DNA from: an uncultured Ruminococcus sp.
GTDB lineage: Bacteria > Bacillota > Clostridia > Oscillospirales > CAG-272
Assembly: GCA_964384555.1 (NCBI GenBank)
Contig: CAYLLA010000001.1
Coordinates: 6,286 to 70,285 of the forward strand
Length of the DNA stretch: 64,000 nt
Direction of reading: 5' to 3'
Shown: positions 39,504-40,892 of the stretch, piece by piece
Position numbering within the stretch: the first letter of the stretch is position 1
How the letters are laid out: the number at the start of each line of letters is the position of its first letter
Made by a program: the position numbers and the translations under genes
Notes under the pieces: generated by a model
Seen by the model: the letters and a program-made list of their open reading frames with translations, nothing else
Told to the model about the DNA's origin: nothing
The model's database searches: none

Positions 39504-40892
39504 TCATTTTGTAAGCAAACAGTATTTTATAAGCGTTGGCAAAACGCGCAGGCGGCGTGGCTGGCAGATGCACCGCCAAAGCCATTCAAGCCGAGCTTTT
39601 ATGACCAAGGACGGCGCGCGCCGCACACTGCCCGACCAAACATCAACAGAACCGCCAAGCGCGGCCGCAAGGTGCACACCGACCTCCGAGAGCCGTTCGG
39701 TATTGTCGAATATAAAGCGCTCCTGCTTTGGAGAGCCAAGGCATACAAAAAGAATGTCCGGCGCGGCGGCCGTGAGCGTATTCCATGCATGTTCGGGGTC
39801 GGATATACCGCCGTAGCCGTCAAGCGTGCCGCATATGATAAGCCCCGCATGCTCAGCCCGCAGCCGCGCGGCGGCCTCCTCGGCGCGCCCTGGTGCGCCA
39901 CCAAGCAAAAACACGCGCCACCCGTGCTCGGCGGCCGCGGATAGAATGTCCCCCGCAAGGTCTATACCGCACACGCGCTCCGGCAGTGGCGTGCCCTGCC
40001 GCCTTGCGGCATCAATAACTCCGCGCCCGTCGGGGACGGAAAGCGATGCCGCATTCACCGCGCGCATCAGCGCGGGGTCGCGGCGGCAGTTCATTGATAT
40101 CACGGGATTGGGTGTTACGATGGTAAAAATCCTATCGCCGCACAAAAGCTGCTCAGTGGCACGGCTCGCGGCCTCAGCCCGTGTCAGCGGATCAAACTCC
40201 ACGTCAAGCACCGACACCCGCGGTGCGCCGCGAGTGACAGCAAAAAAATCGGGGCAGGGGATCAGCCGCGCATTGTCGGCGTGGCATATCGCCACATACC
40301 CCGCGCGGGCCGCAGTTTTTGCTTCTTTTATCTCAAAGTGAGATATCCTCGTGCCCGCGGGACAGCCGCGGCGATCGGCAAGCGTGCCGCCTGCGTATTT
40401 TGATGCCGCCTCATACGCTGTCCATGCCTTGGTAAATGCATGCCGCTCGCAGTTTGTCGCGGCATGGTCATCCAAAAACTCGGCAGGGTCAAAACCGTGC
40501 GGAATGAGCCAACGCGCGGCAAGCTTTTTGCGGCGTGCGGCATGGGTATCGCCGTCGGCTTCACCTGCGCCGTATATCTCGATATCCGCGCCGATGTCCG
40601 CGCAGTCGTCGGATATCGCGCACACCGCCACACCGTGGCAGTGAGATATCGAAAATCCCACCCGCGGGCAGTGCGCAAACCGCGGCTTGCCGCTTTCGTT
40701 GCGCACTACGTGAGTTCGCCGGCCGGGGCGCAGGTGGCGGATATAGCGAAGCATATCAAGCAGCAGGGAAGCGCCAAGGAGAGAATCGTCGGTCCTCAGC
40801 GTGTCGGTGTACTCCGCGCCGAATGCCGCCAAAAGCTCCTCGCGCGAGTGCCGCGGCGGACATGTTGCCGCGCCGATATATACTTTTTTCAT
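39504..40892 (-). CDS. fusion protein: Sfp-type 4'-phosphopantetheinyl transferase domain + WecG/TagA/CpsF (GT26) glycosyltransferase domain
   Basis: Start at ATG 40892 (MKKVYIG) behind GGGAGG/GAGGAA. Residues about 1-215 carry the PPTase motifs GKP (68-70), FSISHC (80-85), GADIE (101-105) and WTAYEAASKYAGG (157-169). Residues about 225-462 carry GT26 hallmarks (TPNPV..., SVPDGRGV, FLLGG.PG, FVCLGSPKQE, LEWLWR). Confidence 0.75.
   Translation of the reverse strand: MKKVYIGAATCPPRHSREELLAAFGAEYTDTLRTDDSLLGASLLLDMLRYIRHLRPGRRTHVVRNESGKPRFAHCPRVGFSISHCHGVAVCAISDDCADIGADIEIYGAGEADGDTHAARRKKLAARWLIPHGFDPAEFLDDHAATNCERHAFTKAWTAYEAASKYAGGTLADRRGCPAGTRISHFEIKEAKTAARAGYVAICHADNARLIPCPDFFAVTRGAPRVSVLDVEFDPLTRAEAASRATEQLLCGDRIFTIVTPNPVISMNCRRDPALMRAVNAASLSVPDGRGVIDAARRQGTPLPERVCGIDLAGDILSAAAEHGWRVFLLGGAPGRAEEAAARLRAEHAGLIICGTLDGYGGISDPEHAWNTLTAAAPDILFVCLGSPKQERFIFDNTERLSEVGVHLAAALGGSVDVWSGSVRRAPSLVIKARLEWLWRCICQPRRLRVLPTLIKYCLLTK

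Follow-up and report, generated by a model that had tools for sequence, protein, structure and literature searches.

Why should an enzyme that primes carrier proteins and a glycosyltransferase share one polypeptide? The question is raised by a gene in a 64,000-nucleotide stretch of DNA (the window; contig CAYLLA010000001.1) from an uncultured Ruminococcus sp., which encodes an Sfp-type phosphopantetheinyl transferase (PPTase) joined to an enzyme of glycosyltransferase family 26 (GT26). The genome that contains the window (G000) is 1.9 Mb in size and 86% complete, and all genomes compared here are metagenome-assembled genomes (MAGs). The PPTase-GT26 fusion is a genuine single gene that is conserved within a group of gut Clostridia, and it is likely a bifunctional housekeeping fusion with two predicted activities, one providing holo-acyl carrier protein (holo-ACP) for uptake-based lipid synthesis and the other catalyzing an early step of wall-glycopolymer synthesis. 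This combination of domains appears to be undescribed; the literature searched contained no description of the architecture, while both families, and sole Sfp-type PPTases, are already well known.

A preliminary description of the locus, made from the DNA letters, reported a single open reading frame (ORF) of 462 amino acids. We confirm this frame, place it on the minus strand, which the description did not state, and find no stop or frameshift at its PPTase/GT26 junction. The longest frame at the locus (509 amino acids) starts with a TTG at 41033; we take the ATG at 40892 as the start because all homologs begin with MKK(V/I)YIG. A search of 5.8 billion proteins recovered 16 clusters of full-length homologs, 43–96% identical, in which both halves align end to end. 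In whole-genome searches, seven species genomes within the same genus proved to contain an uninterrupted fusion frame; in an eighth (G013) the gene is split over two contigs, and in a ninth (G026) it is cut at a contig end. One 472-amino-acid relative (P0003) was assembled as an identical protein on 18 contigs, which come from several unrelated samples; a second (P0002) occurs on 2 further contigs. Among 1.84 billion protein-cluster representatives, the combination is restricted to one lineage.

An assembly or sequencing artefact, in which a missed stop or a frameshift joined two adjacent genes, would be in keeping with the frameshift carried by the neighboring gap gene in the same MAG, but the chance of this is negligible. 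The same in-frame junction recurs in 7–9 species genomes, and 20 contigs of unrelated sample origin carry it; a missed stop between neighbors cannot give the fusion because the two genes are non-adjacent in unfused relatives. Moreover, in the AlphaFold2 model of the full-length protein (mean predicted local distance difference test, pLDDT, 84; predicted TM-score 0.59) the two domains abut without a spacer, with a junction pLDDT of 74–86. The artefact reading is effectively refuted already.

Based on profile comparisons and the predicted structure, the N-terminal half is a divergent Sfp-type PPTase. The window protein alone matches the NCBIfam AcpT model at 2e-5, far under the cut-off of that model. 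A profile built from the fused N-domains and three stand-alone homologs from sister species matches Sfp at 7e-8 over Sfp residues 41–162, with all motifs in register, and also matches AASDHPPT (1e-6), AcpS (2e-5, several structures), and the PPT domain of fungal fatty acid synthase (FAS; 6u5t); it matches nothing significant beyond the PPTase superfamily. The sister-species homologs themselves exceed the Pfam cut-off (31.6–40.8 bits). Searching the 1.84 billion cluster representatives with the N-domain returned 112 proteins, and 38 of its 40 nearest stand-alone relatives belong to PF01648. Aligned by hhalign to an alignment of 40 stand-alone PPTases, it gives a probability of 100% and an E-value of 1.5e-52 over 203 columns. 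A profile search of this region had been proposed at the outset as a means of overturning the assignment; what it returned was PPTases. Foldseek matches of the fusion model, other than TagA, are exclusively Sfp-type PPTases, including 20 structures with E-values of 1e-3 or lower and probabilities of ~1.0; AASDHPPT (2e-8) and Sfp (1.6e-6) are followed by PptT, PptAb, and MuPPT, and more weakly by PcpS. The target-normalized TM-scores are modest (0.59 for 4mrt, 0.54 for 1qr0, and 0.53 for 2c43); the pLDDT of this half is mostly 82–93, and it is modeled with the two-lobed, pseudo-dimeric fold of a monomer of ~220–240 amino acids, which sets this type apart from the trimeric AcpS type of 120 amino acids. 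Thus, the profiles, hhalign, and Foldseek all bear out an Sfp-type PPTase joined to a GT26 enzyme of the TagA/WecG family, as the preliminary description proposed.

The motifs listed in that description are all found at the residues it gave: in the PPTase half, GKP at 68–70, FSISHC at 80–85, GADIE at 101–105, and W157-T-A-Y-E161-A-A-S-K165, and in the GT26 half, PNPV at 261–264, PDGRGV at 287–292, FLLGG at 328–332, LGSPKQE at 385–391, and LEWLWR at 435–440. They are conserved in the 16 homolog clusters down to 43% identity, which excludes a chance resemblance. In the PPTase half, R64, G68, P70, F80, S81, I82, H84, G101, D103, W157, T158, E161, S164, and K165 are invariant across these clusters, and E105 is at least 90% conserved. 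G68-K69-P70, S83-H84, and K165 are in register with G74-K75-P76, S89-H90, and K155 of Sfp, positions that we take, from the structure of Sfp with coenzyme A (CoA), to be the CoA contacts. The Mg2+-binding triad is complete in the profile alignment, with Sfp Asp107/Glu109/Glu151 corresponding to D103/E105/E161, so that the metal-binding and catalytic acidic residues are intact, as previously noted. The first and third residues of the group II PPTase triad are essential, while the second is dispensable (PMC4103896). In pairs with dS of 0.35–0.40, the PPTase half has a dN/dS of 0.22–0.26, and the N-domain is therefore constrained, not a relic. Transfer of phosphopantetheine to the serine of an apo-carrier protein by this domain is predicted on indirect grounds, namely that it is the sole candidate, that ACPs are kept, and that it is under purifying selection.

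The C-terminal half exceeds the cut-offs of PF03808 (169.2 bits, cut-off 27.4; E-value 9e-50; residues 224–462) and TIGR00696 (122.6 bits, cut-off 69). It matches TagA (7mpk) at 1.2e-35, and its AlphaFold model superposes on the TagA/TarA structures 5wb4, 7mpk, and 7n41 with a TM-score of 0.94 and an rmsd of 1.5 Å; the C-terminal tail, which in TagA shuts the active site and attaches to the membrane, is modeled as helices spanning 428–461. Nine of ten functionally important TagA residues, with roles assigned according to PMC8784642, are conserved (Table 1). In TagA, N39, Y137, Q167, and D191 contact UDP-N-acetylmannosamine (UDP-ManNAc) and Asp65 is catalytic (PMC8784642); within the fused clade, N262, D288, Q390, and D417 are invariant. 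In the same pairs, dN/dS in the GT26 half is 0.14–0.18. The earlier TagA/WecG label holds at the level of the GT26 family but does not extend to TagA/TarA proper, because the score against the TarA equivalog model NF041710 (127.2 bits) falls short of its cut-off of 350 and because no TagO/WecA, the enzyme whose product undecaprenyl-PP-GlcNAc serves as TagA/TarA acceptor, was found: MraY is the sole PF00953 gene both in the genome containing the window and in five fused genomes of 92–98% completeness. Two small phosphoglycosyl transferases of PF02397 are likely the initiators of lipid-linked glycans. The genome also encodes a UDP-GlcNAc 2-epimerase and an LCP homolog, and ManNAc is the likely donor of the C-domain.

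In the window's genome there is no second match to PF01648 or TIGR00516 and no second GT26. Likewise, in nine fused genomes, five of them 92–98% complete (G002, 95%; G017, 98%; G020, 98%; G028, 94%; G026, 92%), nothing except the fusion matches PF01648, and nothing matches TIGR00516. The N-domain is the sole PPTase candidate in the fused genomes and the C-domain the sole GT26. Across 37 genomes of the genus there is one Sfp-sized PPTase each, with a second in three, and one GT26 each; no AcpS-sized gene occurs in any of the 37, though elsewhere in the order, in other families, the same search does detect them. In the three unfused genus members with a second PPTase, that gene adjoins a 547-amino-acid AMP-dependent ligase, an 86-amino-acid carrier protein, and a frame of ~2450 amino acids with several carrier domains. 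This locus is probably a cluster resembling those for nonribosomal peptide or polyketide synthases (PKS), with a PPTase of its own.

No ketoacyl synthase (PF00109) was identified in any of the 37 genomes, and type II fatty acid synthesis (FASII) seems to be absent from the genus. A small ACP is nonetheless present in 61 of 61 genomes and is ~90% identical across the genus. The copy in the window's genome has 77 amino acids, and its gene lies outside any fab/pls operon, flanked by genes for a D-Ala-D-Ala carboxypeptidase and a muramoyl-alanine amidase. Its acceptor-serine motif is LGINSIELAEL (LG(I/A)NSIELAEL in the genus), with the serine flanked by N-S-I where D-S-L is usual. Co-evolution of ACP and PPTase was considered as a source of this motif and rejected, as N-S-I is genus-wide and does not co-vary with PPTase type. 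A second ACP closes an operon that also encodes FakA, a PlsX paralog, a DegV/FakB protein, and a 393-amino-acid GNAT-like protein; the canonical PlsX is encoded on contig C30. These two small ACPs are the only carrier proteins in the window's genome. In Gram-positive lipid metabolism, FakAB converts imported fatty acids to acyl-phosphate, which PlsX interconverts with acyl-ACP, the substrate of PlsC. With no detectable ketosynthase, a retained ACP, and, in the window's genome, Fak and PlsX, these organisms appear to be auxotrophic for fatty acids while still requiring holo-ACP, for which a PPTase is needed. It is probable that the whole genus consists of fatty-acid auxotrophs still dependent on ACP, and the absence of FASII together with the Fak/PlsX/ACP operon suggests obligate use of imported fatty acids.

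This inventory also bears on two functions suggested in the preliminary description. A link to D-alanylation, which the description proposed to trace through dlt or carrier-protein genes in the genome context, finds no counterpart: a dlt-like set (dltA, dltB, dltC, and dltD) was not found in the window's genome, its MBOAT proteins and AMP-ligases are unlinked to carrier proteins, and the carrier proteins are the two small ACPs described above. One MBOAT protein is paired with a DHHW protein. The other suggestion was that the PPTase fold has been repurposed and moves phosphopantetheine or another CoA-derived moiety onto a glycolipid or wall polymer rather than onto a carrier protein. The fusion itself and a GT26 lipid acceptor without an assignment are all that speak for this proposal. 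We consider it very improbable, since the CoA- and Mg2+-binding residues are the full set of ordinary carrier-protein PPTases and are under purifying selection, the ACPs of these genomes require a PPTase and no other was found, and the literature searched holds no precedent. The proposal is not needed to account for the N-domain.

Two phylogenies point to how the fusion arose. The nine fused N-domains are monophyletic in the PPTase tree (100/98) and sister to eleven stand-alone PPTases, here called type A. In the GT26 tree the fused domains are likewise a single clade (100/98), within which they branch in the same order as in the PPTase tree. The congruence of these clades argues for one fusion followed by vertical descent, and we place this event in the ancestor of a subclade, comprising at least 8–9 species, of a genus labeled "uncultured Ruminococcus sp.". 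In unfused members of the genus, the GT26 gene immediately precedes gap in the same orientation, within a set of core genes (proS, rodA, and mreBC), while the type A PPTase lies in an hprK-PPT-NAGPA locus, with LCP instead of NAGPA in one genome. In fused genomes gap remains the neighbor but points away from the PPTase end of the fusion, and gerA comes after hprK. From these differences, the PPTase gene entered the GT26 locus by way of a local rearrangement. The type A PPTase and the stand-alone GT26 next to gap are the direct evolutionary precursors of the fusion.

The type A loci have further features of their own. hprK is adjacent to the PPTase in most type A genomes, and in the NAGPA-bearing loci (Table 1) the PPTase is followed immediately by the membrane-anchored NAGPA (a phosphodiester glycosidase) and then by a membrane protein of 640–740 amino acids without an assigned family. 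The second Mg2+ ligand of type A enzymes is Thr or Met (G-x-D-L-T, D-L-M, or D-V-T). Among prokaryotic group II PPTases with a two-residue site, only Gln has been reported at the second Mg2+ position (PMC4103896).

In the housekeeping fusion that we favor, the single stand-alone Sfp-type PPTase gene of the genus would have left its hprK-adjacent locus and joined, in frame, the 5' end of the single GT26 gene, the neighbor of gap. With CoA and Mg2+ bound at D103/E105/E161, the N-domain would transfer 4'-phosphopantetheine onto the serine of the 77-amino-acid ACP and would also prime the second ACP, that of the FakA-PlsX-FakB(DegV)-GNAT-ACP operon. The resulting holo-ACP would allow imported fatty acids to be built into phospholipids. 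At the membrane, where its conserved C-terminal tail would hold it, the C-domain may transfer ManNAc to a lipid-pyrophosphate-linked sugar primer with D288 as the base; ManNAc is named as donor because the specificity residues N262 and Q390 are kept and a UDP-GlcNAc 2-epimerase is present. This transfer would be an early step in making a wall glycopolymer, which an LCP ligase would attach later. The position of the PPTase at the N-terminus fits this scheme, as a TagA-type tail presumably must stay free at the C-terminus. Most likely the fusion does no more than co-express, from one promoter, two single-copy envelope housekeeping enzymes, possibly co-localized at the membrane, and no new chemistry is required. 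With a sole PPTase, retained ACPs, a full catalytic set, and purifying selection, canonical ACP priming is sufficient to explain the N-domain.

Several observations weigh against this housekeeping role. Taken alone, the window protein scores only 15–17 bits against PF01648, below the cut-off of 25. The branch common to fused and type A PPTases, away from the other stand-alone enzymes, is long (1.32 changes per site), and the basic stretch that aligns near the 3'-phosphate-binding lysines of Sfp is 6 residues shorter in the window's sub-lineage. Given the sub-threshold score and the long branch, an altered specificity of the N-domain is possible. In addition, the absence of AcpS and FASII means "not found", since all of the genomes are MAGs, though it is consistent across many that are 94–98% complete. 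The lack of a detectable TagO/WecA leaves the GT26 half without an assigned lipid acceptor. Finally, NAGPA adjoins the stand-alone type A PPTase in 8 of 11 genomes and LCP does so in 1, and this placement beside wall-related genes may point to a connection with the wall older than the fusion, one that a housekeeping role leaves unexplained.

The low Pfam score, the long branch, the shortened basic segment, and the incompleteness of MAGs could alternatively mean that the N-domain is catalytically inactive or regulatory, serving perhaps as a CoA sensor or as an oligomerization module for the GT26 half, and that an undetected enzyme primes the ACP. However, all catalytic and CoA-contacting residues are invariant over homologs of 43–96% identity, omega is ~0.24, the ACPs are kept and highly conserved, and the nine fused genomes contain no other PF01648 or TIGR00516 gene. 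We therefore regard an inactive module as improbable.

The gene neighborhoods instead raise the possibility of a real coupling, in which the membrane-tethered PPTase primes a carrier protein for delivery of acyl or aminoacyl cargo to the wall glycopolymer or to its lipid anchor, or supplies holo-ACP locally to PlsX and PlsC and so coordinates lipid and wall synthesis. The position of type A PPTases directly upstream of NAGPA or LCP is in line with this, as are the stable inheritance of a fusion in which both halves are constrained, the location of the conserved ACP between two peptidoglycan-related genes, and the GNAT-like protein without an assigned role that precedes the second ACP. However, the window's genome shows neither a dlt operon nor a ligase or MBOAT protein linked to a carrier protein, the unfused GT26 lies among core genes rather than in a polymer-decoration cluster, and adjacency to NAGPA is no evidence for a common pathway. 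The PPTases of type B relatives are found in unrelated contexts, and neither their neighbors (a histidine phosphatase, a radical SAM protein, and a TIM-barrel isomerase) nor the large membrane protein after NAGPA reveal a functional theme. On balance such a coupling is unlikely, though it is the alternative to which we give the most weight. A broader form of this idea, to which we give slightly less credence, treats the fusion as a "Rosetta stone": in these Clostridia, which seem to lack FASII, wall-glycopolymer synthesis would depend on a holo-carrier protein in a way not previously recognized. This dependence could take the form of an ACP-borne acyl or aminoacyl group placed on the linkage unit or polymer, or of obligatory membrane-localized priming of ACP that couples lipid and wall synthesis; the older adjacency of PPTase to NAGPA or LCP in sister species would then foreshadow the link between holo-carrier and wall.

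The fusion gene looks like a self-contained unit, with a predicted promoter, ribosome-binding site, and terminator of its own (Table 1). Downstream are pepF and a convergent alkaline phosphatase gene; upstream is the divergent gap. The G+C content of the fusion ORF is 61%, alike in both halves, compared with 53% in the window and in the genome. In the window, gap (glyceraldehyde-3-phosphate dehydrogenase) is split into two overlapping frames and its Pfam N-domain match begins only at profile position 39, while the gene is intact in relatives. The split may be a true frameshift or may stem from a sequencing error in the MAG.

Table 1. Features of the fusion gene, its domains, and related loci. 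Plain coordinates are positions in the window; other entries name the residue, genome and contig, or locus.
Feature	Position	Strand	Basis or remark
Fusion ORF, 462 aa plus stop	39504..40892	minus	ATG 40892; stop codon 39504-39506
Sfp-type (group II) PPTase domain, residues 1-215	40248..40892	minus	profile, hhalign, Foldseek
GT26 (WecB/TagA/CpsF) domain with C-terminal membrane/active-site tail, residues 224-462	39507..40223	minus	Pfam, NCBIfam, structure
Predicted sigma-70-like promoter, TTGACT-17-TATAAT	40950..40978	minus	11/12 matches, ~60 nt upstream of start; consensus match only
Shine-Dalgarno sequence, GGGAGG	40903..40908	minus	10 nt before ATG 40892; read from sequence
Predicted bidirectional intrinsic terminator, 16-19 bp GC-rich stem	39446..39488	both directions	common to fusion and convergent alkaline phosphatase gene
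Equivalent of TagA N39	N262		
Equivalent of TagA D65	D288		proposed base
Equivalent of TagA Y137	Y360		
Equivalent of TagA Q167	Q390		
Equivalent of TagA D191	D417		
Equivalent of TagA E210/W211	E436/W437		
Equivalent of TagA R214	R440		
Equivalent of TagA R221	R447		
Equivalent of TagA R224	V450		R449 adjacent
gap (GAPDH)	41195-42219	plus	frames 41195-41407 and 41305-42219
Intact gap of relatives, 343 aa	L017 6668-7699; L106 167-1198		
Conserved ACP, 74-77 aa	G000:C4:23936-24136 (L003 1477-1710)	minus	orthologs L115-L134
Operon FakA - PlsX paralog - DegV/FakB - 393-aa GNAT-like - ACP2	G000:C6:40861-45892 (L104 2861-7892)	minus	ACP2 at G000:C6:40875-41075
MraY, sole PF00953 member, in murF-mraY-ftsW	G000:C5:27895-28383 (L021)		likewise in G017, G020, G002, G028, G026
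Small PF02397 phosphoglycosyl transferases (two)	G000:C2:52976-53500 and C39:15904-16482		
Second PPTase of three unfused genus members	G001:C23, G029:C23, G034:C80 (L035, L038, L040)		
Type A PPTases with Thr or Met as second Mg2+ ligand	L016:1444-2106; L015:1429-2037; L014:1368-2009		
Type A PPTase-NAGPA loci	L062, L024, L027, L025, L023, L028, L015		LCP ligase instead in L061 (G004)

The fusion provides a clean, datable case in which two unlinked single-copy housekeeping genes became one, and its N-domain illustrates the distance from family models that a PPTase can reach even when it is the only one and essential. Because annotation pipelines label the fusion proteins as WecG-family only, these genomes would seem to be PPTase-free. 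If ACP priming and wall-polymer synthesis are truly coupled, the fusion would represent a new link in Gram-positive envelope biogenesis; otherwise it is an ordinary bifunctional fusion.

Among known systems, the N-domain is most readily compared with Sfp and other group II PPTases (AASDHPPT, Mycobacterium tuberculosis PptT, and Pseudomonas aeruginosa PcpS), which are likewise ~215 amino acids long and two-lobed. The Sfp motifs G74-K75-P76, F86-x-I-S89-H90, G105-x-D107-x-E109, and W147...E151...K155 are in register with those of the N-domain, and the Foldseek probability is 1.0. However, the N-domain is only ~13–16% identical to this group, with TM-scores of 0.45–0.59, has a shorter basic segment, and is fused to a glycosyltransferase. 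PcpS is also an example of one Sfp-type enzyme serving primary metabolism. Single Sfp-type PPTases that serve the ACP of fatty acid synthesis include Hppt of Haemophilus influenzae and Sppt of Synechocystis (PMC4103896). As in these organisms, there is one Sfp-type enzyme in the fused genomes, no AcpS was found, and the housekeeping ACP must be primed by that enzyme. In contrast to them, FASII was not found, the ACP clients belong to the Fak/PlsX uptake pathway, and the PPTase makes up one domain within a longer polypeptide.

The C-domain shares 34–35% identity, the same core, and the same tail with TagA/TarA of Thermoanaerobacter italicus, Bacillus subtilis, and Staphylococcus aureus (5wb4, 7mpk, and 7n41), but differs in the replacement of R224 by V450, in missing the equivalog cut-off, in the lack of a detected TagO/WecA, and in its 215-amino-acid N-terminal PPTase. 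The closest relatives of the N-domain, the type A stand-alone PPTases (220 amino acids in locus L016), form its sister clade and are 32–41% identical to it. Unlike the fusion, they are encoded separately from GT26, in separate loci (hprK-PPT-NAGPA and GT26-gap), and have Thr or Met rather than Glu as the second Mg2+ ligand.

PPTases that are covalently joined to other enzymes also have precedents, as PPTase domains are integrated in some PKS and the fungal FAS alpha-subunit carries a C-terminal PPT domain (6u5t). In the fungal FAS and PKS fusions, the partner holds the carrier-protein substrate of the PPTase, whereas here the partner is a glycosyltransferase without a carrier domain.

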